64,000 nucleotides of DNA from a virus: the IMG/VR virus record IMGVR_UViG_3300037762_000038, positions 257 through 64,256 of that record, one strand, 5' to 3'. The notes beneath the pieces were generated by a model that ran no database searches, was not told where the DNA came from, and worked only from the letters and a program-made list of their open reading frames with translations. Both the position numbers and the translations under genes were made by a program. Below, one piece after another: positions 2,865 to 61,574 of this stretch (its first letter is position 1; each line of letters opens with the position of its first letter).

Positions 2865-3459
2865 GAGTCACCTCTTTCGAAAGCACAATCGCTCCGCCGA
2901 TCAACCGCGTCACTACTCCCGCGGCGCTGATCAGTTCGAGATCGTACACGGCGCTCCCGAAGTCGAATCCCTCAGTGGTAGCAGCCGGGATCAGGAGGTC
3001 AATCGTGCCTGCCACGCCTCCGAGCGCGATCCCACCATTCTCCGTCGTCAAGGTATGAATCGCCGTCGCCGAACTTAGAGTTCCGCGGATATCCATGCGT
3101 GCGGTGAACCCGGTCAGGTCTACTGGCGGGTGGTACAGCAACTCCCCACCCGAGATGTACACCGCGAACCGGGAGGAGTCCACGTTAAGCCGGATCGTGT
3201 TCGCGTCCACGAAGTAACCGAGATACGCCTTGCTGGGATTGCGCAGTTCGTCGGCACGATGGTTAATCTGATCCATCCCGAGAACGCCAACGATCCACAC
3301 TGGCCAGTCCACCGTGAGTCCATGGGCGGTAGCAGTAAGCACCGCCTGCCCGGACTTGGTGATCGCCGTGATCGCCTTAACGGAGAACTGCGGCTGCGAG
3401 AACTTTAGCTGCGGGTTAAACGTCGCGCCTTGTTGAATCGTGAAGTCATAGTTGCTCAT
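2857..3459 (-). CDS. structural protein (200 aa), fibre or baseplate-associated
   Basis: Tightly packed ORF immediately downstream of the giant virion protein gene. Confidence 0.5.
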   Translation of the reverse strand: MSNYDFTIQQGATFNPQLKFSQPQFSVKAITAITKSGQAVLTATAHGLTVDWPVWIVGVLGMDQINHRADELRNPSKAYLGYFVDANTIRLNVDSSRFAVYISGGELLYHPPVDLTGFTARMDIRGTLSSATAIHTLTTENGGIALGGVAGTIDLLIPAATTEGFDFGSAVYDLELISAAGVVTRLIGGAIVLSKEVTRV

Positions 3460-6400: not shown

Positions 6401-9400
6401 AGTTCACCATGTAGTCGAACTCGTGCTTCGGCTTCAGCTTGTAGACCGTCGGCCGACCGCCCCTGCCCATCAGGTCCGTACGGACAGTGGCCGGCGCGAG
6501 GGTACGTGTAAACCACCCGGCGTCGATACCTTGCTTGCGAGCGAGCGAACGGGTCATGTTGCCACGAGCCTTGATCGAGACCCATACCGCGGCCTGCACT
6601 TGATCGGGGGCGATACCCATTTCGTTCGCGAGGCGTTTGATCTCCGCGTCGGCCCACCAGTAATTGGCGTCGGTCAGCTTGCCTTCCTTCGATCCGAAGC
6701 CGAAGATGTGGGACATCCACATGTCGATGGTCGCGTCCTGCGACTCAGCCGGATAGGCTACTGGATCGATGCTAAGCATCAGGTTCTTGAAGAATGAGGT
6801 GATCTTCGGCGCGTTGTCCGGGTTCCCGGGCAGCGTGTACTTGTCGAGGTAATCGCGGTGGCCCGTGCCGTCGAGAATCTTGTTCCCGTACTCGGCCTGA
6901 TGGCGCGTGCCCCCCGCGTCGATCTTCTGGCCGGCTTCCCACTGCGCGTAGTGCTGGACCGCATGGCGCAGGTCTTGACCGACCGGTGTGCGCGGCGAGT
7001 ACATCGCCACGAGCGACGCGAGCTTTCCGGCTTTCGCCTTGTCGTTGCCAGCCCACGCGAGGATCGCCTGCGCCGAGCGACGGTACCAGTCCTTCGCCGC
7101 GTCACCCTCGGAGGTCAGCCCCTTCAGGAGCCGACGCATCTTCACGAGGTCCGCGGGCGTCTTGATCCATGCGGGACGACCCTTCGCCTTCGTCGCTGCA
7201 TCGCGGTTGCGGTGGAGCAGGGCTCCGGTCGGGATCGCGTCGGGCTCAATGGACTCGATGTAAGACGTGTCTACCGTACCAGAACGCATGCCTTGTAGCT
7301 CCCGGCGCGCGTAGTCGCCCTTCTCGATGGCGAAGAAGATGTCCTCGTACGACGTGAACCCAATCCCGGTGACGTAGTTGTTAATCCGCTCCAGCAGGCG
7401 GCGTAGAGCAGCGAAGACGCGCTGGACCACGCCAGTAACTTCAAGCTCGCCGCGTTTCCAGAACTCGAAGCCGTACGCGCGAGCCTCGGCTGGCACGGCG
7501 TTGATCTCGTCGGCGAGCGCGGTACCATTCTTGCGGTCGTATGCACGGGCCTTCTCCATCAGGAGCGCGTGCAGCGGTCCGCCGTTAGCGAATGCCTCGC
7601 GCACCATGCGGCGCTCAGGTCCGGTGAACACGCGCGCTTCGAGGTAGTGGTACCCTTCGTGCGCGGCCACGCTCAGGATGTCCTTGGCGTTCATTGAAAG
7701 CTCGATCACCGCGCGTGCCTTCGAGAGCCGCAACGCACCGACGCCGCCGGCTAGGTCCTCGACCAGTCGCACCTCCAGTTCCTTCGGCGTGCCGAGAATG
7801 GACTCCAAGTAACTGAACACACGCTCACCCTTGTCCTCCATCGTGCGGTTCATGCGATCCACCGCGGCGGCTCGCGACTGCGTGGGCTCCCTCAGCAACC
7901 GATCCCACAGCGAGCGCGGCAGCACGTCCACCTTCTGTGCCGCGAACGCACGCTGGGCCTGCGGCAGTCCTTCGTTCGCATCGCTGAAGTTGACCCATGC
8001 GTTCTGGCCGATGTTGTCCACGATCAGCGCCGGCAGGGCCTTCTCGCTGTACATCTGCGCGTGCATGCGGGTCGCGTTAAGCTCCCCGTTCGGCCCGAAC
8101 TCAAAGCCCGTGCGCGCGTGCGCGAACAGGTCGTGCACCGCGCGGCCCCGGAAAACCTGCTCGGGGTTACGGTACGGATGCGGGTCCCCGCCCTCGAACA
8201 CCCACAGGTGGTTATTGCCGAACACGTCCGCGCGCATCGCGGCACTGTCCTTGTAGGGCTGGCCCTCCTGTCTCCACGGCTCGATGGCGATATGCTTCGA
8301 GACCATGTTGAACATCTGCTCCTCCTCCAACGCCATCGCGTCGAACGCGTCCTTGATGGCGGGGTCGGGATTCAGGTCCTGAAGCTGGTCGTAGGCCCGA
8401 GCGATCTGCTTGCCCATCACCGGGTCCATCGGGATGTAGCTAAGCTCCTGAATCGGCGGCAGGCCATTCGCGGCGTTGTATTCCTGCGCCACATCGAACA
8501 GCGGGTGACCGAGGTTAATCGTCGTCAGCGTGCGCAGGTCGAGAATCGCGATCTGGTCCGCCTCGCGGCCGAGACGTAGAGCGGTGCGCAAGTCAGGCAC
8601 CGAGCGGGCCACATCGAGATAGGTCTGATTAGTGTCCGGGTCATACCACGTACCCATCAGGTAGGTATCGGTCGAGAGCAGGTCGTCGTTTGCGCGGATG
8701 TAGCTGGCGATGGACGCGGGATGTGGCTGCCCGAGCAGCACGACCTCACGTTGTTTAAACGTACTCACCGTGTAGCCGTTGGTCCCGGCCGCGTCGCGCC
8801 CACTGTTAAGGTACGTGGATGATCCACCAGTCGCGAGATGGCGTTGGTGAATCTCTTTCGCCCGGGCGTTGATCGTTTCGTCCGGCATCGACAGGAGCAC
8901 CCGGTCGAACAGGTTGTTCGATACATGCTTCACCGGCTGCGGCGTGAAGATGCGCAGTTGCCCGTCGCCGTACAGGATGGCATCGTAGCCGAGGTCCTTG
9001 ACCTTCTTGTCATACAGCGACCACGTGAGATGCTCGTTGCTGCCGTACTTAACAGCGATCTCGCGACGAGCCTCAGCGAGTAGCGGGTCGGCTCCGTTCG
9101 CCACGTACACCTTGTCGGCGGGAATCGCGCCCTCGTACTGCTTGCGTTCGGTCACTCCGGTCTCACGGAAGGCGGTGCCCTTGACCACGGCAGAGGTATA
9201 GGTCACACCGACGGTGCGCGCTGGCTGCCAGTCCTCGCCTCGACGCCCTCGACCCATCGCGTTCGGGTCCGTCACGCCACCGGGTACTTCACCCCAGTGG
9301 GTGAACTCGACCATCGGCACGGTGGGCTTCGCCGCGGCCTTACTGAACAGCGTCTCCTGACGCGGCAGGCCGGTCACGTCCTCACGCCCGCGCAGAGGTG

Positions 9401-11375
9401 CGGCGGTGGGCTCGGGAATCTCGGCCGGAAGACGGGACGCCACAAACGAGGTAAGCTCGTTGCGGAACGTCTCGATGTCCTGCTTGGGCAACTTGCCCTT
9501 CATCGCCTTCGCGAATGACTCGTTAAACGACGCCGCGGCGACGGTCGAGTCAGGCTTCGTCATCGCCACCTCGGCGGCACGCTTCAGAGCGGTCGCGAGA
9601 CTGGTAGCCTTCTCCGGTGTCAGCGCACCGCTGGTGCGGAGCCCGCTGACGATGATGTCCACTCCACCTGTGTACGCCTCGACGAATGCCTCGCGACGGT
9701 CGCGGGGAGCCAGCGCGCGCGCAGTCGTGCGCGCTCCGCCAGTAACCGGCACTACGACCGACGGCGCGGCCTTCTCGAATTCCCGCACCGCCTTGGCCTC
9801 CACCTCGCTAAGCAGCAGGCCGCGGCTGCGCTTGATCAGCCCTAGCTGCGCTTCGAGGCTGCCTTTGCTCCGCGCGCCGATCTGCGCTTCATCGAGTACG
9901 CGATTGCCACCGCTTGGTCCAGCGGCTTGCCCGCGGCCTTCTCTGTCCGTACGTTTTGAGAGAATGTAGCCTTTGAAGTTCCCCGTTTTAGCGGCATCGG
10001 TAGCCTCCTTCTCTGCTAGACGAAGAATCTCGTCTTCCTGCGTGGTGATAATTGGGCGCGGCTCGGACACAGGCTGGGCCCGCTCCCCGATCACGATAGG
10101 TGCTACGATGCTGCCCTTCGGCTGATACTCCGGCGTCTCGGCCAGCGTCTTCAAATTCGACTCGCGCTGAGTCAGGCGGTCAAGCTCGACCTGCGCTGCC
10201 TTGATTTCCTTGGCGATGCCTTGCTTCGGACGACCCTCCTTCTTCGGCCCGCGTACTTCCGTCACGAGCCCGGCGATCTTGCCACGCAGATCATCCATCT
10301 GCCCGCGCACCTTGTCGAGCGGTGTGACGATGGGCGCGTCCTCGCGGCCGGACATTGAAATCGAGTCCGCCGTATAGATCAGGCCGAGGTTCTCGGCGTC
10401 GAACGACTGGAATGGCGATGGTGTGGCTGTGGTGTCCGGAACCTGCTCTACCACAGGAGGCGCAGCAGGGGCCCCAGCAGGGGGTGCAGCGGGGACGGGC
10501 GCAGGAGCGGCAGCGCCCATGCCGGCACGGCGGGCAGCGCCCACAGGGCCCCCTACGATGCCGCCCATGAGCGCACCCAGCGCCGCGGCGTTCAGGAAGT
10601 CGCTACGAGCCTCCGGCCCAGTCAGTGGCTGGTCGGCAGCGACGCGCTCGATGCCAGTCTGCGCGACCTCGGTGCCTGCCTCGATGGCCGCGCCGCCAGC
10701 AACGCCGAGGGAAGCACCCTTCAGAATCTCCGTGAGCCCGCGCGCGGGGTTCGCTTGGCGCTTGCCGAACACGCCTAGCATGCGGGCAGCGAGCAACTGC
10801 GGCACCACGTCGAGCGAGCCGGCGAGCGTGCCACCCACGACAGCGCGCGCGGCGGCGTCAGGCAGGCCAGCCTCTACGGCATCAGGGAAGATCGCGCCGG
10901 CTTCTTGCGCGATGGAGGAGGTCGCGAGCCCTGCGGTCATGCCCGCATTGCGCGCGAGCAGCGCTTTCGCAGGATCGGCGATCCCGCGCGCTGCGGCGAC
11001 GCCACCCACACGACCTAGCAGGCCGGCAGCGACGGCGGTCGCCAACTGAGGCACGAGGTAACCCGCGCCGTACTTCGCGAAGTCGATGGCCCCGCTTACG
11101 TCCTCGATATCCTCGACACGCATCGAGGACTCGGCCGACTCCGCGAACGCCCGCTCAGCAGTCTCCAGTCCGAAACGCTTCAGCGGTTCGATGCCGGTCA
11201 GGTCGCCTGCGAGCGCGAGCGCACCGGCCGCGGTACCCTTGAGGGTTTTCGCGCCAGTCTTGAGACCCCTTTTGAACGCGCCCGGAGCGTTAGGGTCTGC
11301 AAATAAGCTGGTTCCGGCTACCGGCTGCGTTACGTCGAGACCTGCGCTCGGCGTGAACAGACTTTGTTCGGCCAT
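3456..11375 (-). CDS. giant internal virion / DNA-ejection-type protein (2639 aa)
   Basis: Single uninterrupted 7.9-kb ORF directly after internal-virion-protein-like genes, in the position of T7 gp16 / P22 ejection proteins. N-terminal Ala/Gly-rich hydrophobic region. Internal HEGYH (HExxH) motif. No tail tube or sheath genes are present, so it is not a tape measure. Confidence 0.8.
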   Translation of the reverse strand: MAEQSLFTPSAGLDVTQPVAGTSLFADPNAPGAFKRGLKTGAKTLKGTAAGALALAGDLTGIEPLKRFGLETAERAFAESAESSMRVEDIEDVSGAIDFAKYGAGYLVPQLATAVAAGLLGRVGGVAAARGIADPAKALLARNAGMTAGLATSSIAQEAGAIFPDAVEAGLPDAAARAVVGGTLAGSLDVVPQLLAARMLGVFGKRQANPARGLTEILKGASLGVAGGAAIEAGTEVAQTGIERVAADQPLTGPEARSDFLNAAALGALMGGIVGGPVGAARRAGMGAAAPAPVPAAPPAGAPAAPPVVEQVPDTTATPSPFQSFDAENLGLIYTADSISMSGREDAPIVTPLDKVRGQMDDLRGKIAGLVTEVRGPKKEGRPKQGIAKEIKAAQVELDRLTQRESNLKTLAETPEYQPKGSIVAPIVIGERAQPVSEPRPIITTQEDEILRLAEKEATDAAKTGNFKGYILSKRTDREGRGQAAGPSGGNRVLDEAQIGARSKGSLEAQLGLIKRSRGLLLSEVEAKAVREFEKAAPSVVVPVTGGARTTARALAPRDRREAFVEAYTGGVDIIVSGLRTSGALTPEKATSLATALKRAAEVAMTKPDSTVAAASFNESFAKAMKGKLPKQDIETFRNELTSFVASRLPAEIPEPTAAPLRGREDVTGLPRQETLFSKAAAKPTVPMVEFTHWGEVPGGVTDPNAMGRGRRGEDWQPARTVGVTYTSAVVKGTAFRETGVTERKQYEGAIPADKVYVANGADPLLAEARREIAVKYGSNEHLTWSLYDKKVKDLGYDAILYGDGQLRIFTPQPVKHVSNNLFDRVLLSMPDETINARAKEIHQRHLATGGSSTYLNSGRDAAGTNGYTVSTFKQREVVLLGQPHPASIASYIRANDDLLSTDTYLMGTWYDPDTNQTYLDVARSVPDLRTALRLGREADQIAILDLRTLTTINLGHPLFDVAQEYNAANGLPPIQELSYIPMDPVMGKQIARAYDQLQDLNPDPAIKDAFDAMALEEEQMFNMVSKHIAIEPWRQEGQPYKDSAAMRADVFGNNHLWVFEGGDPHPYRNPEQVFRGRAVHDLFAHARTGFEFGPNGELNATRMHAQMYSEKALPALIVDNIGQNAWVNFSDANEGLPQAQRAFAAQKVDVLPRSLWDRLLREPTQSRAAAVDRMNRTMEDKGERVFSYLESILGTPKELEVRLVEDLAGGVGALRLSKARAVIELSMNAKDILSVAAHEGYHYLEARVFTGPERRMVREAFANGGPLHALLMEKARAYDRKNGTALADEINAVPAEARAYGFEFWKRGELEVTGVVQRVFAALRRLLERINNYVTGIGFTSYEDIFFAIEKGDYARRELQGMRSGTVDTSYIESIEPDAIPTGALLHRNRDAATKAKGRPAWIKTPADLVKMRRLLKGLTSEGDAAKDWYRRSAQAILAWAGNDKAKAGKLASLVAMYSPRTPVGQDLRHAVQHYAQWEAGQKIDAGGTRHQAEYGNKILDGTGHRDYLDKYTLPGNPDNAPKITSFFKNLMLSIDPVAYPAESQDATIDMWMSHIFGFGSKEGKLTDANYWWADAEIKRLANEMGIAPDQVQAAVWVSIKARGNMTRSLARKQGIDAGWFTRTLAPATVRTDLMGRGGRPTVYKLKPKHEFDYMVNWIRLSLTVPFSKANFDAANYSYAEGFRDVSDGTLPLNRLDFDFEVQAGLFDDIAFGKVTQGELTFYSRAASLADVAQRVREGELPRTQLNAMWAEAVDHPSTPTGLRDSIMGTTTAEAKGALGSLKRFYSEHLSSGLNLARHSAGYKNVFNTMTSYTQRKSRLIADAVERRLSEWTGPGAGTQGDKAVATAALLKRTENAWTTTSPEYMSLRQGLTDKQRAMFDQATTMIAFELDAELKADAATYRTLFANDEQFSQWFSERFEQVQRLKNEGYFPERRYGDHVVHAYVVGPDGKKITVYYTQHEREADARTELNELKQLLPDEGLTFEYGFRYRADYDGSISFGQFLDIARRHGINLTQSEKERIGKALIAADSTRRNRIFRRKDVAGYSPDGMRVLAEFGVTMANKIAYSELGQAMNDSLNGKEVQVQFTPTGEVEINTYERNMWELDGERAGFYRNLADKTLDFTLTPNQANPISRGLRMAASAHFLGGSAAAMMVNMTALPMNTVPWLTQHTSYTDALAKVIGSAKLATQHLGVIRDLPKLLDLSVPMEGIDNVEGLRRALQIAAQDGTILDTEIFQIMGLSRGQEYSLSGRVQGAVRAWMLPFRLSEQFNRVTAFTATYRIGKEKGLTNDQAYKLAQDAVYSTHFRYDEANRPALARSNVGSLFFVFKTYPIFATELMAHLMKTNKTAAVYMMLSYVMMSGLEGLPFVEDIEDIIDVIAQRFFGSPFNTKRAMRNVLKSASEAIVGADLSSVLLHGMANELTGMSFASRVGLGNLIPGTRLGAADADYKRVLSDVLGPVGALIEGVAGGVDSLSRGNFTEAARQALPLSAQNMVKGWQQWEKGYATDIGGRRLVDISGFEAFWQSLGFSPAALAKAYTTDMIDRQTSAFYSRVKVDLTSDLAKALREGDTARMQDIVALITEWNQIYPQMPMAVSASSVRRQVQLASLPLNQRTLLTLPKALRGSSETALGLEDVQ

Positions 11376-29419: not shown

Positions 29420-29772
29420 GTGCGCCCGAGGGTCTGGACAGTGCGTTCGGTGTACTCGTTCAGCGCCTCGGCAAGCTGCTCGGCCACATCGCGCATCGAG
29501 AGCGGGATACGCCGGGCCTTAGCCACGTCGAACGTGACCTCGACCCCGCGCGGGCCCTTGACGATCCGGTTCGCGCGCCCGGCCCAGTACAGGCCGCAGC
29601 ATACGCCGTCCGCGTCGATTAGCTCCAGCAGGAGCGCGGAGGCCGGATGCGGGTCGAACGTGACGATCTCGCCGTCGATGGCGCGCAGCGCCGAGTGCCC
29701 CTCGCGTCGCGCGCTGCTCTCCTCCCGGTGCGGTCCGAACGCGATCCTCCCTACCGTCGCATCGCTGCTCAT
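29395..29772 (-). CDS. hypothetical protein (125 aa)
   Basis: ORF overlapping its neighbours at both ends. Confidence 0.45.
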   Translation of the reverse strand: MSSDATVGRIAFGPHREESSARREGHSALRAIDGEIVTFDPHPASALLLELIDADGVCCGLYWAGRANRIVKGPRGVEVTFDVAKARRIPLSMRDVAEQLAEALNEYTERTVQTLGRTWRAVECV

Positions 29773-30506
29773 GTCTGGTCCTCCACTCGTGGTGTAATGT
29801 CGATGGTGGCACCGGCTGGCTGGGCCGGGGTCCCTGCGAATATGATCGACAGGTTAAACCCCGACCCAGCGCCGCCCCCCACCCCCTTCTCTTTCTCGGA
29901 CGGCTCCAGCCCAGCCATCTTAGCCGTCCACTTGATGATGTCCGCCCGCACCGCGGCCGGCACCTCGTTGTCAGTCGCGAGCGCGTAGCTCTGCGTCAGC
30001 AGGTCCTCGGCTTGGATTTTCGCCTTCAACCGGAACGTGACTCCCTTCTCGGTCAACTCCTCCTTATAGCGCTTGATCGTGCTGATGAACGCCGGCAGCC
30101 CGATCAGCTTCTTCGCCTCCTCCAGCCCCACCCCGTACTTCCTGAACACGTCCGATGGCGTGGACAGCCCGAGCGCGAGCGCGTAGGCGATCCTCGGGTC
30201 GAACGTCATCGCCGCGGCGCTCTCGGGCTCGTACCCCGGCGGCAGCAACTCCCTCAGCCGGCGCGCCTCTCGGACGTTCGGCGGCTCGCCCCGGCGCTCG
30301 AAGCCCTCCGGTACTGTCTCTTTCTTGACAATGACCTCGGGCAGCGGCTCGGCGAGCCTCTCGAAGAAGCTGTCCGCGGCCGGCACCGGCTCGGCGCGCT
30401 TCTGCGGCAGCGCCGGCCTTGGTGCCTCCTCCCCGTCCCCCTGTGCACCCGTGGTCATTCCCGAACTATACCTGTCAAGTTGTGGGCTTGTCAACCCCGG
30501 GGTCAA
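29769..30506 (-). CDS. first gene of the late operon, putative DNA-binding / terminase small subunit candidate (245 aa)
   Basis: Position: first gene of the packaging operon, immediately downstream of the repeated GGGGATAA boxes. Central helix-rich region. Assignment is by position only. Confidence 0.4.
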   Translation of the reverse strand: MTPGLTSPQLDRYSSGMTTGAQGDGEEAPRPALPQKRAEPVPAADSFFERLAEPLPEVIVKKETVPEGFERRGEPPNVREARRLRELLPPGYEPESAAAMTFDPRIAYALALGLSTPSDVFRKYGVGLEEAKKLIGLPAFISTIKRYKEELTEKGVTFRLKAKIQAEDLLTQSYALATDNEVPAAVRADIIKWTAKMAGLEPSEKEKGVGGGAGSGFNLSIIFAGTPAQPAGATIDITPRVEDQT

Positions 30507-30545
30507 GATTTTTACGGGTGCGGAGAATAGGGGGCCTAATCTCCG

Positions 30546-30632
30546 CAGGGGATAGGCGCTCGTTATACCCTACGGGGGATAATGTCAATTATATTAGGCA
30601 CTAAAGGGGATAACGCCAATTATAATTGGCAC
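30546..30632. promoter_or_regulatory. three GGGGATA(A) boxes including the perfect 16-bp palindrome GCCAATTATAATTGGC; candidate late-operon promoter/operator or packaging-protein binding sites
   Basis: Boxes at 30547, 30575 and 30606. Palindrome at 30614-30629 contains TATAAT on both strands. Lies 40-125 nt upstream of the first minus-strand late gene. Confidence 0.45.
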
Positions 30633-31023
30633 GGACCTGTCGTTCAGCCGCTGCTGAAACAAGGCCCGGGGGTGGAAATGTCGCTGGGGAGCTACTTGCG
30701 AATCTCCTGCCGGGGCGTCGCGGGGGCGAAAATACGGATCGGGATGCGAATCCTAATTGTGTTACTGTTGAGTTGTTTACAGGGCCCAAAAATTGCCCGA
30801 ACGTACACGGGACAGGGGGACAGGCGGGGGCGGGCCGGCGCGCGTTACCCCCAAGGGGGTCCACAGCGCAACAATAAAGCATGCTTATTGCTCTGCCTGC
30901 GCGCCGGAAACCGCTGAACAATCAAACAGTTAAGCGGTGGCGTGCGGGGGATGCGTAACACAATTACGCAGGCTTAGCCCGTCGCGTTGACACTTCGCGC
31001 GGCCAAGTGGTTGATTTGTTGAT

Positions 31024-31343
31024 ACTATCCAACAGGTATCCAGAGGAAATCATTAACTGGATAGTTGCTGACGCCCGGGGACTATGCGCACTATCCATAC
31101 TATCCATCTAAAAAAAGAGAGCAGCAAGTCTTTTTGTCTTGTGAGTTTGTCACACGGTTAGGCGGTGCGCGCATTCCCTTCCGCGTTTTCGCGTGCGCGT
31201 TCAGTTACGCTCTGTATTCCGCTGGATAGTACGGATAGTTGCTCTGCGAGGTGGCAACAGTCCAACAAAACAACAGTCTAACCACTATCCACCTTAACCT
31301 GTCATACACAGATTCCCGCCGGATACCCTCTGGATAGTTGCCC
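31024..31343. repeat. iteron-like array: at least 9 copies of TGGATAGTTGC / ACTATCCA (both orientations) flanking an AT-rich tract; candidate replication origin or regulator operator field
   Basis: Forward copies at 31058, 31223, 31233, 31332. Reverse copies at 31024, 31036, 31090, 31099, 31285. AT-rich CTAAAAAAAGAGAGCAGCAAGTCTTTTTGTCTT at 31107-31140. Confidence 0.6.
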
Positions 31344-31367
31344 GGAAAACCGGCCATTCTGTACAAT
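31338..31367 (+). promoter_or_regulatory. candidate early promoter (TTGCCC-N18-TACAAT) for the first plus-strand gene, overlapping an iteron
   Basis: Sigma70-like -35/-10 pair about 35 nt upstream of the 31402 start. The -35 lies inside the TGGATAGTTGCCC repeat. Confidence 0.4.
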
Positions 31368-31401
31368 GTAGGGCTCTACAACTTCACAGGGAGACCGCCT
31401 C

Positions 31402-31650
31402 ATGTCCGCATTACCACGCCTGACCGCAGCGCGCACCGCCGCTATCAAGCGCTTGAAGCGTGCCGAAAACAGCGCGCGCCGGGCCATTGCTCGATTCAAG
31501 GTCGCCCAAGGCGAGATTGCCGCGCTCGATATCGACCTTGCAAATGCCATCCATGCCGAACGCACCGGGGCGACGCGCCAAAGGGGCATAGAGCCCGCGC
31601 CTGTGCCGACGCTGCCGGGGCGCACCGGCCCGGGCCCGGACAAGGTGTAA
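31402..31650 (+). CDS. first early gene, hypothetical (82 aa)
   Basis: GGGAGA RBS 8 nt upstream. Follows a TTGCCC-N18-TACAAT promoter. Confidence 0.5.
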   Translation: MSALPRLTAARTAAIKRLKRAENSARRAIARFKVAQGEIAALDIDLANAIHAERTGATRQRGIEPAPVPTLPGRTGPGPDKV

Positions 31651-31758
31651 CACAAATAGATTGACCGCTAACCGTGTTACGTGCTAGCGTGCGGGCGGCG
31701 CTTCGGAGTGCGGGGCGCACCGGCCCGGCGGCACCGGGTAGGACTAGGAGCTAGGACC

Positions 31759-32223
31759 ATGAGACGACAACAAGTAACCGAGATTAACGCCGAGCTTCGC
31801 GGGCCCGTGCGCGAGCAAATGCTGCGGGACATCATGTGCACGGCGTTTGAAGGCGGCTGCAACTACTGGGCCGAAGCGCGGCGCGTGCAGCGCGGGGGCG
31901 ACGGCGGGACTGAGTATCTCAGCTTCGACCTGCGCAGCGCGGAAGATCGCGTCGACAAGCGGCTAGGCGCATGGGTGCGCATCGACCCGGACGCCATCGA
32001 GCGCGGCATGCAGCGTATCGCGGACAGTCGCAAGCCGGACGCGCCGCGCTGCAAGGTTGCGCCGGGCCATCCTTCGGCCAGTCATGCGGCCTGCGGCGTA
32101 TGCGATACCATCTTCGCCGCCGTGCTAACCGCCATCGCGGACCCGGAGGGCGCGGACCTTGACGCGGGCGATGCTGACTGCATCGTACAGGCGGCAATGT
32201 GGGGCGAGATCATCTACGGGTGA
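31759..32223 (+). CDS. hypothetical early protein (154 aa)
   Basis: AGGAG RBS. ORF with several Cys residues. Confidence 0.5.
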   Translation: MRRQQVTEINAELRGPVREQMLRDIMCTAFEGGCNYWAEARRVQRGGDGGTEYLSFDLRSAEDRVDKRLGAWVRIDPDAIERGMQRIADSRKPDAPRCKVAPGHPSASHAACGVCDTIFAAVLTAIADPEGADLDAGDADCIVQAAMWGEIIYG

Positions 32224-42199: not shown

Positions 42200-42585
42200 T
42201 GCTCGCTGAGGCCGCACTGTGCATGGCGCTGACGGTGTACCACGAGGCCGGGGGCGAGCCCTACGTGGGGCGGGAGGCCGTCGCGCATGTGCTTCACAAC
42301 CGCGCTAAGAAGTACGGCACGAGCATCTGCTGGGAGGCGTTCAGATACAAGCAATTCTCGTGGACGCTGTACCCGTCCAAGCTGGAGCGCCTTCCGAAGG
42401 GGCCCGCATGGGAGGACTCGAAGCGCGTCGCCCAGCGGGTGCTGTCCGACACCTCGGACTTCACGGGCGGGGCTGATCACTTCCATACCGTCGGCCTCAC
42501 GCCGAGGCCGTACTGGGTGACGCCGAAACTGGAAGTAGCGGGCCAGTGGGGGGACCACATCTTCTACCGCCCTCGGCGCAAGTGA
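42199..42585 (+). CDS. SleB/CwlJ-like cell wall hydrolase (Hydrolase_2 family), endolysin candidate (128 aa)
   Basis: Conserved YHEAGGEP...VAHVLHNR...YKQFSW motifs of the SleB-like catalytic domain. Confidence 0.65.
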   Translation: MLAEAALCMALTVYHEAGGEPYVGREAVAHVLHNRAKKYGTSICWEAFRYKQFSWTLYPSKLERLPKGPAWEDSKRVAQRVLSDTSDFTGGADHFHTVGLTPRPYWVTPKLEVAGQWGDHIFYRPRRK

Positions 42586-42821
42586 GGTATACTGCCGCCC
42601 TTGTTCTGCTTCTCGCCGGCTGCGCCACGCTCGATGCGGGGCCCCGGCGGACCGCAGAGAACACGTGTAACTTCCTGTTCCTCGCCGCCGTACCGGTAGC
42701 GGGGGCTGTACTCGCCGCCCTGTGCACGTTCGGCGTCGAGGAGATACCAGAGGAGAACGAAGATGTTTCAGGCAATCGTAGAAGCCCTAGCTCATTGGCG
42801 CGACCGACTCGCCCTCGCTGA
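42582..42821 (+). CDS. small membrane protein with two hydrophobic segments and a lipobox-like LLAGC (79 aa); holin-like, or the N-terminal anchor of the downstream SPFH protein
   Basis: GTG start. TM1 ALVLLLAGC and TM2 FLFLAAVPVAGAVLAALCTF. Overlaps the next gene by 59 nt in another frame. Confidence 0.4.
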   Translation: MRYTAALVLLLAGCATLDAGPRRTAENTCNFLFLAAVPVAGAVLAALCTFGVEEIPEENEDVSGNRRSPSSLARPTRPR

Positions 42822-43314
42822 GATCATCGACGCCTATGAGCACGGCGTCGTTCTCCGCTGGGGGAAATACCATCGCACGCTGGGGCCCGGGTACCACTGG
42901 AAATGGCCTGTAGCCGAACTCGTGGTGCAGGTGATCACGTGCGACCGCACCATGCATCTCCCGGCGCAGCCGCTGACCACCCTCGATGACAAGTCGGTGA
43001 GCGTGGGAGCGGCGGTTAAGTATTCCATCATCAATCCCGAGAAGTTCGTGACGCAGGTGTGGGATCAGCACGACGTGCTCGCTGACGTAACGATGGGAGC
43101 GGTGTGCAAGGTGATTAACAACACCACGTACTCCGCGCTTGTGCATGAGACCCCCGTGGGGGAGATCACGCCCGAGGACAAGGTGCTGGAGCGGGTGCGC
43201 AACAAGGTAACAGCCAAGTACGGCTTCAAGGTGCACGAGATCACCTTCATCGCCTTCGCTCGGTCGCACGCTATCCACCTCGTGCAGCCGCTTCCCAAGG
43301 ACATCGAGAACTAG
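42763..43314 (+). CDS. SPFH / band-7 (stomatin-prohibitin-flotillin-HflK/C) domain protein (183 aa)
   Basis: HGVVLRWGKYHRTLGPGYHWKWPV...VITCDRTMHLPAQPLTTLDDKSVSVGAAVKYSIINPEKFV matches the SPFH domain core pattern. No TM segment in this frame. Confidence 0.7.
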   Translation: MFQAIVEALAHWRDRLALAEIIDAYEHGVVLRWGKYHRTLGPGYHWKWPVAELVVQVITCDRTMHLPAQPLTTLDDKSVSVGAAVKYSIINPEKFVTQVWDQHDVLADVTMGAVCKVINNTTYSALVHETPVGEITPEDKVLERVRNKVTAKYGFKVHEITFIAFARSHAIHLVQPLPKDIEN

Positions 43315-43315
43315 C

Positions 43316-43489
43316 ATGAGCCGAGATTGGTTCAAAGGCATGTGCAAATTTATGGTTAGCGACAGCGCTAGTCATATCGTCGGTAAGCGCCCATGCTCGC
43401 GTAAGCCGGTGAAGGATGACCTGTGTGCTTTCCATCAGCCCGAGAAGGTCAAGGCGCGCTACGACAAACTTCTTGCGAGACATCGCTGA
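43316..43489 (+). CDS. hypothetical small protein (57 aa)
   Basis: ATGA-coupled to the DNA polymerase start. Weak support. Confidence 0.3.
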   Translation: MSRDWFKGMCKFMVSDSASHIVGKRPCSRKPVKDDLCAFHQPEKVKARYDKLLARHR

Positions 43490-45501
43490 TGCAACTGATG
43501 ATCCTCGACTACGAGACGTACTACGGCGACGACTACACGTTGAGCAATCTGTCCACGTCGGCCTACGTCATGGACCCGAGGTTCGAGGTGATCGGAGTTG
43601 GCATCCGCTACGGCGACCGCCGTGCATGGCTGGAGGAGTACCAGTGGCGCGCATTCGCGCGGAGCGTGGACTGGTCGCAGATCACGATGCTATGCCACCA
43701 TGCCCACTTCGACGGGCTGATCGGCTCCTACCACTACGGAGTGCGCCCCGGGTACTGGCTCGACACGCTGAGCATGGCGCGAGCGCTGCATGGCGTCACC
43801 GTGGGCGGGAGCCTCGGCAAGGTGTCGGCGCACTACGAGGTGGGCGTGAAGGGGACCGAGGTAGTGCAGGCGAAGGGCAAGCGCCGCGCCGACTTCACGC
43901 AGGAGGAGTGGCTACGCTACGGGGGATACTGTTTAAATGACTGCGACCTGACACTCGGCATCCTCCAGAAGATGCTGCCGACGTTCCCGCGCCCCGAGCT
44001 AGACCTGATTGACACGACCGTGCGGATGTTCACCGAGCCGGTCCTCGTGCTGGATCAGGAGAAGATGGCCCAGTATTACGCCGACGAGATCAAGCGCAAG
44101 GAGACGCTGCTGCTGGAGTGCGGCGCGGACAAGAAGGTGCTGGGCTCCGGCGACAAGTTCGCCGACCTGCTCCGCCAGTTCAACGTCGAGCCGCCGACCA
44201 AGCTGAGCCCGAAGCAAAAGAATGAGGACGGCTCGCCCAAGCGGGTGTATGCCTTCGCTAAGACGGACCCCGGGATGCAGGAGCTACTGGAGTACGAAGA
44301 CGATGACGTGCGCCTGCTCGCCGAGGCCCGGATCAGCATCAAGTCCACGTTGAACGAGAGCCGCAGCGCCCGCATCCTGAACCTCGGGGCGAACGGCCGG
44401 CCGATGCCGGTGTACCTGAATTACTCCGGGGCCTTCCAGACCAAGCGATGGAGCGGGGGCGACAAGGTTAACTGGCAGAACTTCGAGAAGACGAACAAAA
44501 GGAATCCGAAGAAAGGGATGATCCGCAAGTCCATCCGCGCGCCCAAGGGATACAAGGTGGTGAAGGCCGACGCCTCGCAGGTCGAAGCTCGCTTCAACGC
44601 GTGGGAGAGTGGGCAGGATGACCTCGTGGCGTTGTTCGCCAGCGGGGTAGACGTGTACTCCAGCTTCGCCACCGATGCCTACGGCCGCAAGATCGACCGG
44701 AAGAACGTGGCCGAAGACGAGTTGCCCGGACAGGTCGCTAAGATTTGCATCCTCGGTCTCGGCTACCGCATGGGTTACCTCAAGCTGGCCGGCGAATTGC
44801 TGATGGGCCGAGGCGGTGCGCCGAAGGTGCAGTTTAAACGCGAGGACATGGAGCGCCTGAGCATTGACCCGGCCCCCTTCCTTTCGAACCCGCGCATCGT
44901 GCGTGAGATCAAGGAGATGCCCAGCCGCCTGCCCGAGGCCGACCGTATGATCCACTGCACCGTGACGAACTACTTCGTGCAGACCTATCGCCGGAAGATG
45001 GATAAGATCGCCGGCAACTGGAAATACTGGGACGAGGTGATCAAGTGGATGGCCTCGGGCCAGTACGTGGGGGCCAAGGTGGGCAATCGGGGGCTGCTGA
45101 CCATCGTTGAAGACGGGCTCCTCATGCCGCACGGGCTGGTGCTCCGCTACCCGCACCTCGAACACAGCAAGGAGAACGGCTTCAGCTTCCTCGCCGATAA
45201 GGGCCAGCGCAAGAAGATTCACGGCGGCTTCATGGTAGAGAACTATACACAGGCCCTGACCCGTGTTATAGTGGCGGACGCTATGCGCGCTCTGACATGG
45301 GGACGCCAGCGTGCAGGGCTTGAACCTTACAAGATCGCACAGATGGAACACGACGCGCTGACGTGCGTTGTCGAGGAAGCAAGGGCAGGCGAGTGCCTGA
45401 CCGATCTGATGCGAGCGATTAGCACGCCCCCCGCATGGGCACAGGGACTACCACTAGCAGCCGAGGGCGGGATCGGCGACACGATGGGGGACGCGAAATG
45501 A
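43489..45501 (+). CDS. family A DNA polymerase with 3'-5' exonuclease domain (670 aa)
   Basis: Exo I motif MILDYETYY. Pol motif A KADASQVEARFNAW (compare T7 ADASGLELR). Motif B ICILGLGYRMGY. Motif C EHDAL. Confidence 0.85.
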   Translation: MQLMILDYETYYGDDYTLSNLSTSAYVMDPRFEVIGVGIRYGDRRAWLEEYQWRAFARSVDWSQITMLCHHAHFDGLIGSYHYGVRPGYWLDTLSMARALHGVTVGGSLGKVSAHYEVGVKGTEVVQAKGKRRADFTQEEWLRYGGYCLNDCDLTLGILQKMLPTFPRPELDLIDTTVRMFTEPVLVLDQEKMAQYYADEIKRKETLLLECGADKKVLGSGDKFADLLRQFNVEPPTKLSPKQKNEDGSPKRVYAFAKTDPGMQELLEYEDDDVRLLAEARISIKSTLNESRSARILNLGANGRPMPVYLNYSGAFQTKRWSGGDKVNWQNFEKTNKRNPKKGMIRKSIRAPKGYKVVKADASQVEARFNAWESGQDDLVALFASGVDVYSSFATDAYGRKIDRKNVAEDELPGQVAKICILGLGYRMGYLKLAGELLMGRGGAPKVQFKREDMERLSIDPAPFLSNPRIVREIKEMPSRLPEADRMIHCTVTNYFVQTYRRKMDKIAGNWKYWDEVIKWMASGQYVGAKVGNRGLLTIVEDGLLMPHGLVLRYPHLEHSKENGFSFLADKGQRKKIHGGFMVENYTQALTRVIVADAMRALTWGRQRAGLEPYKIAQMEHDALTCVVEEARAGECLTDLMRAISTPPAWAQGLPLAAEGGIGDTMGDAK

Positions 45502-45674
45502 CAGTGGAACAGGTCAAGAAATTGCGAGAGGCCGCGAGGGAGTTCTTCAACGCCACAGTCGCACGCCCCGGGGTGGTGTTCGTGCGTAGCACTACGCGCG
45601 CGGCCCGCGACCGTGTTAACCGGGCATCGGATCGTCTCGAAAAAATTCTTCAGCAAACGGCGGAGGGCAAATGA
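45498..45674 (+). CDS. hypothetical small protein (58 aa)
   Basis: ATGA overlap with the polymerase stop. Confidence 0.35.
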   Translation: MTVEQVKKLREAAREFFNATVARPGVVFVRSTTRAARDRVNRASDRLEKILQQTAEGK

Positions 45675-45997
45675 CCGACCAGAAAGCACCGGAGCAGGAC
45701 AACCAACCGAAGGTGAACCGCGAGGAGCAGAACCGGGTAATCATACCGATGATGCACCGACTGCTGCCACCCATCGTGCAGGCGGCGGCGCTGTACCATC
45801 AACTCTACCCGCTCGACAAGACCGCGCCGGAAGTAGTGGATGCGGTCACGGTGGCAGTGCCCTTGCGGCACTTCATGTTGATGACCAGCCTCGTGACGAA
45901 CCTCTGCGTCATGGAGATGGAGCGCCGGCAAGCGGCGAACGACGCCAAGGTCAGCGACACGTTCCCGCAAGACCACATTCCCGAGGGGGCAGCATGA
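45671..45997 (+). CDS. hypothetical protein (108 aa) ending in …DHIPEGAA
   Basis: ORF. Its C-terminus and the downstream junction are repeated at 50262-50295. Confidence 0.5.
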   Translation: MTDQKAPEQDNQPKVNREEQNRVIIPMMHRLLPPIVQAAALYHQLYPLDKTAPEVVDAVTVAVPLRHFMLMTSLVTNLCVMEMERRQAANDAKVSDTFPQDHIPEGAA

Positions 45998-46449
45998 AGA
46001 CCGTCTACCTAGCAGGGCCCATCACGGGGCTGGACTACGAGGGAGCCACGGACTGGCGCTACGCCGCTACGCGTCTGCTCGCGCCGGAGATCAAGGCTCT
46101 CTCGCCGATGCGCGGCAAGGAATACCTGTCGCACGTCAAAGAGTTCACGATGGACGGCGACAGGTACAGTCCGTTCAGTGTGATGTCCTCGAACCGGGGC
46201 ATTATGACCCGCGACCGCTGGGACGCTACTCGCTGCGACGTGCTCCTCGTTAACCTTCTCGGCGCGAAGCGCGTCTCCATCGGCACCGTCATGGAGATCG
46301 CGTGGGCCGACGCAGTGCGTACGCCCATCGTGTGCATCATGGAGCCCGAGGGCAACCCGCACGAGCACGGCATGATACTGGAAGCCATCGGCTTTCGTGT
46401 ACCCGGCCTCGAAGAAGCTCTGCACATCATCAAGGCGATGCTGCTATGA
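45994..46449 (+). CDS. nucleoside 2-deoxyribosyltransferase / dNMP N-hydrolase (Rcl/DNPH1)-like protein, paralog 1 (151 aa)
   Basis: N-terminal MKTVYLAGPITG matches the YLAGPF signature of the NDT fold. A conserved Glu follows later. Confidence 0.65.
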   Translation: MKTVYLAGPITGLDYEGATDWRYAATRLLAPEIKALSPMRGKEYLSHVKEFTMDGDRYSPFSVMSSNRGIMTRDRWDATRCDVLLVNLLGAKRVSIGTVMEIAWADAVRTPIVCIMEPEGNPHEHGMILEAIGFRVPGLEEALHIIKAMLL

Positions 46450-46901
46450 GGACCGTCTACCTTGCCGGCCCCATCACCGGCCGCACCATCGGGGAAGCCA
46501 ACGACTGGCGAACGCCAGTGATCGCCGAGCTTGCGAACTTCCGGATCAGGGGCATCTCGCCCCTGCGCTGCGAGCCGCCGCGTGGCGACCGGTACACCAT
46601 CGCCAACGCTGACCCGCAGTTCGGCACCGCGCGCGCCATCGGCAGCAAGAACATGATGGACGTGCGCATGTGCGACCTGACCCTCGCTTATCTGCCCAAG
46701 GCCATGAGCGCACCGTGGCCCAGCCTCGGCACCATCTCCGAGCTTGCTTGGGCGAAGGCGTTCAACAAGCCCACAATCCTCGTGTCTGACGACGCTCGTA
46801 TTTGCGAACATCCCGTGATCGACTCGAACTCTGGATGGATTCTGGATACACTGGATCAGGCAATCGAAGTAATCGTCGGCATCTTCAAGGACTACCCGTA
46901 A
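46446..46901 (+). CDS. nucleoside 2-deoxyribosyltransferase / dNMP N-hydrolase-like protein, paralog 2 (151 aa)
   Basis: N-terminal MRTVYLAGPITG. Tandem paralog of the preceding gene, with an ATGA-overlapped start. Confidence 0.65.
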   Translation: MRTVYLAGPITGRTIGEANDWRTPVIAELANFRIRGISPLRCEPPRGDRYTIANADPQFGTARAIGSKNMMDVRMCDLTLAYLPKAMSAPWPSLGTISELAWAKAFNKPTILVSDDARICEHPVIDSNSGWILDTLDQAIEVIVGIFKDYP

Positions 46902-46911
46902 AGGAGGACCC

Positions 46912-47172
46912 ATGCCCTACATCAAACAGATCGACAGAGACGCGCTGGGGTGCGGCACACGCCATCCCAGCACCGCCGGGGAGTTGAATTACACCTTCAC
47001 CCTGTTCGCGCTGGAGTACATTCAGCGCAAGGGGTTGAGCTACCAGCACATCAACGACGTGCTCGGCGCGCTCGATGGTGCGAAGCTGGAGTTCTATCGC
47101 CGGCTCGCTGCGCCCTACGAGGACAAGAAGATCGCCGAGAACGGCGACGTGTACGATCAGGAGGTCGCATGA
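46912..47172 (+). CDS. hypothetical protein (86 aa)
   Basis: GGAGGA RBS. Confidence 0.5.
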   Translation: MPYIKQIDRDALGCGTRHPSTAGELNYTFTLFALEYIQRKGLSYQHINDVLGALDGAKLEFYRRLAAPYEDKKIAENGDVYDQEVA

Positions 47173-48164
47173 AGCTGATCGGATTGGCGGGCCCCGCCGG
47201 AGTGGGCAAGGACACCATCGCGGACTACCTCGTCGCGACGCATAACTTCACGAAGTTCTCGTTCAGCGACGCGCTGTACGACGAGGTGGCAGCGGCGTTC
47301 GGCATCGACAAAGCCGTGCTCTATGTGCGCGAGACGAAAGAGCACCCGATGGAAGCGTTGCAATACTGGTACTGCAACGACCTCGCTTTTCAAGACATCA
47401 TGTTCGAACAACTGGCGCGCGTCCACAAGTACCCGCTGGACGTGTGGTGTTCGCCGCGTCAGGTGCTCCAGTGGTGGGGCACCGAGTACCGCCGCAAGCA
47501 GAACCCGGGGTATTGGATTTTTAAGGCTGGGCTCGTCGTGCGCGCCTACCTCGCGCTCGCGAAGGATGACCCCGAGACCCAGCGCGGCGGGCTGGTCAAC
47601 TGCTCCGTACGCTTCCCGAACGAGCGCGTCTTCGTCGAGATGCACAACGGCGAGGTGTGGCATGTGCAGCGCCCGAACTGGGGTGACGCTCTGCCGGCGT
47701 CGCAACGGGCCCATGTCGCCGAGCAGGGACTACCGGTGTTGCCGCGCGACAAGGTGGTGCTCAACAACGGCACCATCGAACAGCTTGGCACCGCTGCCAA
47801 CCTGCTCCTCAGCAGCCAGCCGGGTAGCATGATCAAGTGCGCCCCAGTCGGTCCCGAGCAGGTAACCTGTACGGGGTGCGGCTGGGTCCACATGGCCTAC
47901 ACGCGCGCCGAAGCGCAGCGCGAGGTGGACGACTTCAACGCATGGTTCGTCCAACAGACCGACGAGACGAAGGCCAGCTATGGCGGCAAGCAGTCACGCG
48001 TCGAGGATTACGAGGGCTGCGACCGCTGTGGCCGCAAGGTGTTCCGCCCGAGCAAGCCTGATGACGCGCCAATCGGTTGCACCATCGGGCCGGTGATCTA
48101 CGACCCAGCGGCCGAGGAGGCCGACCGCCGCTTCGGGCAACCGCATTACGGGCACGACGCATGA
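47169..48164 (+). CDS. deoxynucleoside monophosphate kinase (T4 gp1-like) with C-terminal Cys-rich zinc region (331 aa)
   Basis: N-terminus MKLIGLAGPAGVGKDTIADYL closely matches the T4 dNMP kinase P-loop (MKLIFLSGVKRSGKDTTADFI). C-terminus has CTGCG...CDRCG. Confidence 0.8.
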   Translation: MKLIGLAGPAGVGKDTIADYLVATHNFTKFSFSDALYDEVAAAFGIDKAVLYVRETKEHPMEALQYWYCNDLAFQDIMFEQLARVHKYPLDVWCSPRQVLQWWGTEYRRKQNPGYWIFKAGLVVRAYLALAKDDPETQRGGLVNCSVRFPNERVFVEMHNGEVWHVQRPNWGDALPASQRAHVAEQGLPVLPRDKVVLNNGTIEQLGTAANLLLSSQPGSMIKCAPVGPEQVTCTGCGWVHMAYTRAEAQREVDDFNAWFVQQTDETKASYGGKQSRVEDYEGCDRCGRKVFRPSKPDDAPIGCTIGPVIYDPAAEEADRRFGQPHYGHDA

Positions 48165-48379
48165 AAGTCCTTGTCAACGACTTCGTGAGGGCGTTTCGCA
48201 GCCTGCCCTCCCCCGAGCGCCAACACCGGGCTGTGCTGAGGGTAATAGGCCCCCCGCTGCCCTTCTATATCACGCCGATCTCTGAGGAAACCACCGGGGA
48301 AACCATCGCTGCCAAGGACATCATGCTGATCAGCGAGCCACAGCCGGACGGTGGCCGAGCGTGGGTGATGGACCTGTGA
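48161..48379 (+). CDS. hypothetical protein (72 aa)
   Basis: ATGA-coupled ORF. Confidence 0.45.
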   Translation: MKVLVNDFVRAFRSLPSPERQHRAVLRVIGPPLPFYITPISEETTGETIAAKDIMLISEPQPDGGRAWVMDL

Positions 48380-48870
48380 TCCCTGCCTCTGCCATCCTGT
48401 CGCCGTGCCGCAAGTGGCGCTACTACCTTCAGCGTACGTGGGTGGAAAACGCGCCACGGCTTGGCCTGATCATGCTCAATCCGAGCACGGCCGACGAGAC
48501 GGCGGACGATCCGACCATCGTGCGCTGCCGGGCCCGGGCGATGCAGATGGGGATGGGTGGGCTCGACGTGGTGAACCTCTTTGCGCTGCGCGCGACGGAC
48601 CCGATGGAGTTGTATGACTTCTTCGCGGAGCCGATCAGCGACCCGAAGCAGCCGGGCACGAACGACGCCGCCATCGAGGGTGTCGCTCGCACCGCCGCTA
48701 TGGTGATTTGCGCATGGGGCAAGCACGGCGCGCATCTCAGCCGTGGTAGAATCGTACTTGAAAAGCTGAGAAGTTGGCGCGTGGTCCCCCACGCGCTTCG
48801 TATTAACAAGGACGGCTCGCCGGGGCATCCGCTGTATATCGCGTTGAAGCACCGGCCCTTCCCCATCTAA
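48361..48870 (+). CDS. DUF1643-like phage protein (169 aa)
   Basis: GTG start. RKWRYYLQRTW and MLNPSTADETADDPTIVRC resemble the DUF1643 signature. Recalled from memory, so tentative. Confidence 0.45.
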   Translation: MGDGPVIPASAILSPCRKWRYYLQRTWVENAPRLGLIMLNPSTADETADDPTIVRCRARAMQMGMGGLDVVNLFALRATDPMELYDFFAEPISDPKQPGTNDAAIEGVARTAAMVICAWGKHGAHLSRGRIVLEKLRSWRVVPHALRINKDGSPGHPLYIALKHRPFPI

Positions 48871-56798: not shown

Positions 56799-57086
56799 AT
56801 GGCGTTCGACTGCAAGAAATTCAAACGAGTGATGGACAGCAGCGGGCTCACGAAGGCCGAGCTTGCTAAGCTGTTCGGTGTCAGCCGGCAGGCGCTGTAC
56901 CTCTGGTGCGACCGCGCACCGGGACAGAAGACCCTCGCCGAGCGCGCCGAGAAATACACCGACGGGATCATTGCCGCTATGAGCAGGGGACTGCTCCCGT
57001 TCGCCGCCTCGGTATCCCCGGAGCGCCGGACTGAGTTCCTGCTCACGATGGCGAAGCGACTCCACACACTCACGGCCCCCAAGTAG
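56799..57086 (+). CDS. XRE-type helix-turn-helix transcriptional regulator (95 aa)
   Basis: LTKAELAKLFGVSRQALYLW is a classical HTH. Sits directly upstream of the primase-helicase gene. Confidence 0.6.
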   Translation: MAFDCKKFKRVMDSSGLTKAELAKLFGVSRQALYLWCDRAPGQKTLAERAEKYTDGIIAAMSRGLLPFAASVSPERRTEFLLTMAKRLHTLTAPK

Positions 57087-60007: not shown

Positions 60008-60219
60008 GCTACATGGAGGATACCGAGGAGCTTTATCTGCACGTTCGGCGCATCCAAGAGTACGTTGCGTACGTGGAGAGGGAGATTAAAGGAGCCCTTC
60101 TCCGAGCATGGTACGACAACGAGGACGCGGGGGTTGTGCAGGTTAAGCCGGCACCGTGGCAAGATTATATGCACGCCGTGATCTACGACCTCGGCGAACA
60201 GCAACGCATCTATCTATAG
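60004..60219 (+). CDS. hypothetical protein (71 aa)
   Basis: ATGA-coupled to the primase stop. Confidence 0.45.
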   Translation: MSYMEDTEELYLHVRRIQEYVAYVEREIKGALLRAWYDNEDAGVVQVKPAPWQDYMHAVIYDLGEQQRIYL

Positions 60220-61219: not shown

Positions 61220-61241
61220 TAACAGAACAGGAGACCGAGAC

Positions 61242-61567: not shown

Positions 61568-61574
61568 GAACATT

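Follow-up and report, generated by a model that had tools for sequence, protein, structure and literature searches.

What purpose is served by an array of short repeats lying at the point where the early and late genes of a phage diverge? The question is raised by positions 31024-31338 of a 64,000-nt stretch of DNA (hereafter the window) from the 64,256-nt IMG/VR virus record IMGVR_UViG_3300037762_000038, a phage genome with a GC content of 62%. A megablast search of INPHARED found no near-identical phage, and the best match of the large terminase subunit (TerL), at 39%, is to that of Pseudomonas phage Rollin. All genes between 613 and 30458, with those for TerL, the portal and a 2639-aa protein among them, lie on the minus strand, all genes from 31402 to about 61000 (encoding, among others, a family A DNA polymerase, an SNF2 helicase, an exonuclease and a 970-aa DUF927 protein) lie on the plus strand, and the array is placed between the two blocks, in the genome's one divergent intergenic region, about 940 bp in length. 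A preliminary description had read the array as either a replication origin, with a motif resembling the DnaA box, or a multi-operator field for an early regulator. On the basis of its sequence and of analogy with known systems, we give about an even chance to the proposal that the array is a phage replication origin, and specifically one of the iteron type used by the self-loading Rep helicases of staphylococcal pathogenicity islands (SaPIs) and of the staphylococcal cassette chromosome mec (SCCmec, helicase Cch).

Layout and base composition of the array

The word GGATAGT occurs nine times in the 64 kb of the window versus 3.1 times expected, a number that none of 100 shuffles reached, and eight of the nine copies fall in 31024-31338. 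Two GGATACC variants raise the total of the field to ten sites. Their conserved core is the 8-mer TGGATAGT, and a TTGC extension is found in three copies only, such that the preliminary description was right to count at least nine copies but too generous in assigning them a length of 11-13 bp.

The ten sites are arranged in mirror symmetry, five on either side of a central spacer, a feature that had escaped the preliminary description. On the left, an outer pair on the minus strand (31024-31042), made up of TGGATAGT at 31024-31031 and TGGATACC at 31035-31042 spaced 11 bp apart, is followed by a single plus-strand site, TGGATAGT(TGC) at 31058-31065, whose orientation is opposed to that of its neighbours, and then by an inner doublet of two minus-strand sites with a 9-bp period (ACTATCCAtACTATCCA at 31090-31106, doublet sequence ACTATCCATACTATCCA). 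On the right, the same elements recur in mirrored order: an inner plus-strand doublet, also of two sites with a 9-bp period and inverted relative to the left one (TGGATAGTaCGGATAGT at 31223-31239, doublet sequence TGGATAGTACGGATAGT), a single minus-strand site at 31284-31291 (reading ACTATCCA on the plus strand) that is the mirror partner of 31058-31065, and an outer plus-strand pair (31320-31338), with CGGATACC at 31320-31327 and TGGATAGT at 31331-31338, again 11 bp apart and mirroring the outer left pair. The two inner doublets, both of which had been correctly noticed as adjacent copies, are thus oriented (-,-) on the left and (+,+) on the right, with 118 bp between their 7-bp GGATAGT cores.

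The whole array (31024-31338) emerged from the site search, as the inverted repeats I1 and I3, from a scan for 7-mer repeat fields and from a detector of inverted tandem doublets around a spacer. It is the top-ranked repeat field of the window in the 7-mer scan and the sole locus in 64 kb picked up by the detector, which found no such arrangement in two cultured phage genomes. The earlier claim that no other iteron field exists in the window therefore holds.

The central spacer (31107-31222), which we propose as the zone of melting and helicase loading, has a GC content of 50% versus 62% for the genome. Its left ~45 bp are A/T-rich (about 33% GC), its right part is GC-rich and includes a conserved CATTCCCT..GCGCG element, and the stretch 31081-31160, with 39% GC, is the lowest-GC 80-bp stretch of the entire window. 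As a single strand the spacer folds moderately better than shuffled sequences (z = -2.8); the imperfect hairpin CGCGTTTTCGCG to which the preliminary description had pointed is trivial, with a stem of 4 bp.

Variation among relatives and the candidate initiator

To compare the array across relatives, we collected the equivalent region from about 30 related contigs, anchored on homologues of the first late protein and with flanks of 10 kb at most. The layout generalises to at least ten lineages, in which two or three tandem copies with an 8-9 bp period are inverted about a spacer of 93-127 bp. Outer paired sites are usual among these ten lineages, the relatives carry 7-12 sites, and an A/T tract of 15-35 bp adjoins the left array. 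The word itself is not constant. GGATAGT is used in the window and in lineages L003/L017, L009/L010, L011, L012, L021 and L023, TAGGCGC in L005 and L026, and TAGACGA(G) in L001 (= L022), the three words being mutually unrelated. The inner left doublet is kept as two to three tandem copies in L003/L017, L009, L011, L012, L021 and L023, and the outer left pair is also found in L011. About 264 bp of non-coding DNA, including the left half of the array, are ~99% identical between the window and L003, the DNA identity of the flanking genes being 84-90%. L042, with the word CTACTA, is a weaker case of the layout, and the strict inverted-doublet layout was not found in the distant relatives L007, L013-L015 and L024-L049, where repeats are present. 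A scan of IMG/VR with a strict GGATAGT-array pattern returned only two contigs, both among the known relatives. On the basis that the layout is kept while the word changes, the binder is expected to be a fast-evolving protein encoded by the phage, and not DnaA or another host protein.

The nearest cultured relative, Pseudomonas phage Rollin (L016, OR577172.1), has a 1.45-kb non-coding divergence region (1-1450) in which TTGCATACT occurs three times with a 9-bp period beside a 30-bp A/T tract, with inverted copies on both sides. This layout is related, but not identical, to that of the window array. The same region of Rollin also holds four copies of a 23-25 nt palindromic hairpin, AAAAGGTAGCAAGTTACTACCTTTT, and a run of N in the record.

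As the cognate initiator we propose the 970-aa primase-helicase (57095-60007, plus strand), which was characterised through Pfam (DUF927), PHROG (primase/helicase), phmmer, an AlphaFold2 (AF2) model and Foldseek. Its residues 480-970 are a helicase of the MCM-type AAA+ class resembling Cch and the Rep of SaPIbov1. First, phmmer with the helicase region against PDB sequences retrieved 8tch (SaPIbov1 Rep, E 1.7e-12) and 5dgk (SCCmec Cch, E 3e-6). Second, Foldseek with the AF2 model of residues 480-970 (pLDDT 91.8) retrieved 5dgk over its full length (E 2.5e-17, 501 aligned columns, TM 0.60) and 8tch (E 1.2e-12), followed by MCM proteins. In the same model, a helix-helix-wing unit at about residues 885-950 forms a C-terminal winged-helix-like region. 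The N-terminal half has no sequence match in PDB and a weak primase match in PHROG only. Judged from these matches and from the predicted fold, the 970-aa protein is the one universal protein that comes from a family known for iteron recognition.

The C-terminal region is also the most variable part of Rep among its homologues. Between the window and a TAGGCGC genome (P0131) its identity is 17-32%, versus about 50-55% for the helicase core, and the C-terminal domain of the P0131 protein is of a different type. That the C-terminus of Rep is most variable and that the word switches fits an initiator-iteron pair, and switching between three words within a kept layout is what would be expected if such a pair were specific to each lineage. 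The distance from the array to rep, downstream of it, is 26 kb, and is the same in the L005 genome. No iterons follow rep in the window, where 60007-60372 is filled with tightly packed small genes and contains no repeats, and no iteron words were found near rep in the L005 genome. In the more distant Rhizobium phage RHph_TM3_14A (L056, MN988472.1), the primase-Rep homologue at 42239-45322 carries the GenBank label 'putative integrase protein', which is probably a misannotation.

Several other proteins were considered as binders of the array. There is no neighbouring gene that is common to all array-bearing lineages: an 82-aa basic protein was discarded as lineage-specific, a 180-aa phrog_2355 protein is replaced in L003, a 125-aa protein is absent in L021, and a 149-aa family is absent in L005/L026. 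The first late protein (gene 29769-30458, minus strand), whose gene stands directly before that of TerL in Rollin and L005/L015, is probably the small terminase subunit (TerS). Its AF2 model is all-helical (pLDDT 65) with a weak Foldseek match to the TerS-like structure 2ao9 (E 1.9), it has no Pfam match, and a profile search of PDB sequences found nothing. This TerS-like protein was rejected as the binder because it does not track the iteron word. In its tree, L022 (TAGACGA) nests inside the GGATAGT clade, with 62-71% identity to GGATAGT members versus 58-75% within the clade; the N-terminus of the L022 protein resembles that of the clade, and the putative helix-turn-helix (HTH) region varies equally within and between word groups.

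Origin models and competing explanations

SaPI Reps read short iterons via a C-terminal winged helix, and SaPI origins contain 6-12 short iterons, divided equally by a central AT-rich region, with two or more per side in opposing directions; a pair of Rep hexamers is believed to self-load, each from its own side (PMC9371898). The window has counterparts to most of these traits: it encodes a Rep of this family, and its ten iterons are split 5 + 5 with opposed inner doublets. As with the array, the iteron word of SaPI origins differs among related elements. In comparison with the SaPI (SaPIbov1, SaPI1, SaPI5) and SCCmec Cch systems, the helicase family is the same, namely MCM-like AAA+ with a C-terminal winged helix, and PriRep5 of SaPI5 is, like the window protein, a primase-Rep fusion, although PriRep5 belongs to a different helicase class. 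Of the two functions offered in the preliminary description, the origin gains, indirectly but specifically, from the presence of a Cch/SaPI-type Rep, from the match to the published layout (PMC9371898) and from the array being the sole field of its kind, and the part given there to DnaA is not sustained. Also in its favour are the 80-bp GC minimum at the spacer edge, the near-identity to L003 of the stretch that includes the left half of the array, and the 9-bp repeats in the divergence region of Rollin. We infer that Rep binds the array and that replication starts there.

A number of findings weigh against this origin reading. The array is 26 kb away from rep, whereas SaPI origins lie immediately downstream of rep, and its core is 7-8 bp versus 5-6 bp in SaPIs. 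The spacer is A/T-rich in part only, the A/T tract being placed beside the left doublet and not at the centre. The cumulative GC skew, a check suggested in the preliminary description, does turn at 28-32 kb, but this turn at the array is uninformative because the coding strand switches there too. RHph_TM3_14A has a Rep homologue and no such array, the co-variation of Rep and iterons is drawn from two clades, where phylogeny confounds it, and a conserved HTH protein encoded next to rep (56799-57086) is a candidate for an alternative binder of the array. Because adjacency to rep is lacking and the AT-rich centre is only partly present, the array cannot simply be classed as a SaPI origin. It is further set apart from SaPI origins by an extra outer tier of paired sites, which results in a 315-bp mirror layout, by a centre that is A/T-rich in part and includes one site of a second family (see below), and by Rep binding being a prediction here. 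The bearers differ as well, SaPIs being Gram-positive satellites and the array belonging to an apparently lytic phage of ~64 kb with a high-GC host.

Two other known origins offer partial parallels. The alpha protein of satellite phage P4 unites primase, helicase and winged-helix origin binding in one polypeptide, and the P4 origin, with direct and inverted 8-bp iterons (TGTTCACC), does not adjoin the 3' end of the gene. P4 and the window thus share primase, helicase and (predicted) recognition in one polypeptide, 8-bp iterons and an origin away from the 3' end of the gene, but the P4 helicase is of SF3 type and that of the window MCM-like, P4 needs crr as a second site, and the repeat layouts differ. 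The origin of Lactococcus phage c2 is said, after work by Waterfield and colleagues in 1996, to lie in non-coding DNA from which early and late genes diverge, the same position as that of the array. The c2 origin is A/T-rich and transcribed and is not known to contain a comparable mirrored iteron array, and c2 is not known to encode a Rep of the SaPI/Cch family. By analogy, the array would resemble an origin for a SaPI/Cch-type Rep, the P4 origin more loosely, and the c2 origin in position only.

If the array is an origin of this kind, the winged-helix C-terminal domain of the primase-Rep fusion would read the 8-bp word TGGATAGT, with one Rep hexamer on the left sites (31024-31106) and another on the right sites (31223-31338), the two sets being oppositely directed. 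Both complexes would melt the spacer, beginning at its A/T-rich left part (31106-31150), the helicases would move apart, each co-oriented with transcription (late leftward, early rightward), and the fused primase in the N-terminal half would start synthesis. The divergent flanking promoters could add negative supercoiling, aiding melting, and occupation of the outermost right sites might dampen the promoter at 31338-31367. More tentatively, and with greater doubt than hope, we raise the possibility that the phage family as a whole, made up of apparently lytic phages of ~60-65 kb with high-GC hosts, uses for its replication a self-loading origin of SaPI/SCCmec type that has been relocated to the divergence point and enlarged into two mirrored tiers, and that the word and the winged helix of Rep switch as a matched pair from one close relative to another.

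To our knowledge, most uncultured phages lack a known replication origin, and studies of self-loading helicases of the Cch/SaPI-Rep kind have been confined to staphylococcal satellites and SCCmec. Should the array prove to be the cognate origin, a spacer of ~100-125 bp flanked by inverted 9-bp tandem iterons would constitute an origin-finding rule for the entire family, the three words would provide a natural specificity-switch series for winged-helix iteron reading, and phage and satellite replicons would be linked. If the matched-pair proposal were true as well, phages would be a reservoir, and possibly the source, of the Rep-ori modules known from satellites and SCCmec, and fast word switching would amount to replicon-level isolation among co-infecting relatives or satellites.

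The strongest competitor, which we nonetheless regard as unlikely, is that the array is a multi-operator field through which a phage regulator, a small DNA-binding protein that would coat the array, times the early/late switch by repressing or activating the divergent promoters, whether through occlusion at the edges or through looping or wrapping of the 315 bp, by analogy with the p4/p6 control region of phi29 between early and late operons; it would then be a fairly ordinary regulatory region. Such a field would befit the only divergent intergenic region of the genome, in which L012 has two extra sites ~45 bp upstream of the conserved early promoter, and the conserved HTH protein (56799-57086) could be the regulator. 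Moreover, the last site on the right abuts the -35 of a sigma-70-like promoter (TTGCCC-18-TACAAT, 31338-31367, plus strand), in agreement with the preliminary description, which had placed the distal copy at an early -35. However, this is the only promoter that the array touches, and it serves the 82-aa gene (31402-31650), which is confined to the window lineage and L003 and absent in L009, L011 and L012. The promoters that are conserved in the family lie at a distance, about 320 bp for the early one (TTGACC-N18-TAGCGT, 31661-31690) and about 530 bp for the late one (TTGACA-18-TATAGT, 30465-30494, minus strand), and no promoter-like site was found within the spacer. Rather than dyad operators, the sites are asymmetric words of 8 bp repeated in tandem every 9 bp, and the word differs between close relatives, yet no regulator gene travels with the array. 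With respect to phi29, the array shares its location at an early/late boundary and the presence of short protein-binding repeats on both sides of a ~100-bp segment, but it does not overlap the conserved promoters, and no p4-like protein was identified in the window. An iteron origin may also double as an autoregulatory operator, such that the operator and origin readings are compatible.

A better operator candidate is a second site family, GTMACACRRWTAS, because it is conserved across lineages and flanks the conserved early promoter. Its five copies in the 64 kb, versus 0.67 expected, all fall in 30753-31680 (at 30753-30765, 30955-30967, 31149-31161, 31647-31659 and 31668-31680). The third of these, GTCACACGGTTAG on the plus strand, lies in the middle of the array spacer, and the last two flank the -35 of the conserved early promoter. 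Relatives with another iteron word retain the core of the family, GTMACAC, and this argues that the binder of this family is conserved, and the HTH protein at 56799-57086 is a candidate for it.

Considerably less probable is a packaging initiation site (pac or cosB-like), at which TerS would bind the two repeat clusters and TerL would cut the bent spacer. The pac site of P1 has two repeat clusters around a ~100-bp spacer, and pacL/pacR of SPP1 are cited likewise; the array resembles them in this respect and in its terminase-adjacent location, upstream of the probable small-terminase gene (29769-30458), whose product has the all-helical model with the weak 2ao9 match. Many metagenomic contigs, in addition, break in the general region of the array. 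However, these contigs end at varied places, in part within the gene and in part 100-980 bp upstream of it, and we discarded their pile-up as a physical end since no single position stands out; four contigs of ~60-65 kb with differing permutations read through the array. The TerS assignment is itself weak, with no Pfam or PDB sequence match, and the specificity of the array is not tracked by the TerS-like protein, as is evident from the nesting of L022. Nor was a PacA-like protein identified in the window. Finally, the array lies 565-880 bp from the gene, and a conserved block between the two (30760-30905) is a better pac candidate.

Still less credible are other nucleoprotein sites, that is, an attP with integrase arm sites, a partition centromere or a telomere-resolution site. 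The arm sites of lambda attP, parC/parS and the N15 tos have layouts similar to that of the array, in which sites with a 9-11 bp period are opposed about a core of ~120 bp. Nevertheless, among about 50 window proteins scanned against Pfam there was no integrase, ParA/ParM, ParB/ParR or protelomerase domain, the sole palindrome at the array is TGCGCGCA, with no long central palindrome and no tRNA-like core found, and the gene content (PolA, SNF2, Rep, exonuclease and at least 18 tRNAs) looks lytic. Least probable of all, and very nearly negligible, is a host-DnaA-dependent origin built on a cluster of DnaA boxes: CTATCCA does resemble the first seven bases of the box TTATCCACA and four of the ten sites are within two mismatches of it, but none is within one mismatch, the box-defining CACA end is not conserved, matches with up to two mismatches are not enriched in the window (88 versus 74 expected), and TAGGCGC and TAGACGA, which occupy the same layout, are unrelated to DnaA boxes.

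Promoters and other features around the array

The TACAAT element of the promoter that adjoins the last right site and the ribosome-binding site and start of the 82-aa gene are kept in L003. Some lineages, but not others, have small basic helical open reading frames (ORFs) beside the array. The one in the window is 82 aa long, that in L003 is longer and only 40% identical to it, in keeping with the strong divergence of these ORFs, and L001/L022 have a small basic helical ORF of ~125 aa between the array and the early promoter. On the other side, the near-consensus sigma-70 late promoter at 30465-30494 is directly upstream of the first late gene and is kept in relatives. The end of its -10 and the ATG are 7 nt apart, which implies that the late mRNA is leaderless or has a very short leader, and the promoter appears oddly strong and constitutive for structural genes.

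The conserved non-coding block at about 30760-30905 is kept in 11 lineages, including those with other iteron words or no clear array. It comprises TTTACA, a near-palindrome of the GTCGYGYACGCGA type, GGGGGAC followed by ~22 variable GC-rich nt and TTACCCCCAAG, and the palindrome AAAGCATGCTT. The block had no Rfam match and RNAalifold yielded a weak G5/C5 stem only, and an Rfam scan of 30300-31800 returned nothing at E <= 1; it could be a pac site or a structured RNA. Two tandem 31-nt repeats at 30563-30624 (TTATACCCTACGGGGGATAATGTCAATTATA and TTAGGCACTAAAGGGGATAACGCCAATTATA), of which L003 has one copy only, cover the lowest-GC 50-mer of the window (30579-30628, 30% GC).

Elsewhere in the genome, no terminal repeats were found between the two ends of the window, a null result that is uninformative because 256 bp of the record lie outside it. 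The tRNA genes (at least 18) follow the early block at 61130-64000, and another tRNA-like sequence is cut by the window end. The minus strand at 55911-55969 holds two copies of TGGACAGGTGC 48 bp apart, inside a 472-aa ORF that precedes the HTH and rep genes. Four copies of CTGTCCA are present in 55901-56250. The C-terminal ~700 residues of the 2639-aa protein of the structural block (3456-11375, minus strand) match PHROGs of giant phage proteins, including a DarB-like antirestriction family. Lastly, two adjacent nucleoside 2-deoxyribosyltransferase-like genes and a dNMP-kinase-like gene (45613-48164) precede a DUF1643 gene (48361-48870), a set that hints at nucleotide salvage or DNA base modification.

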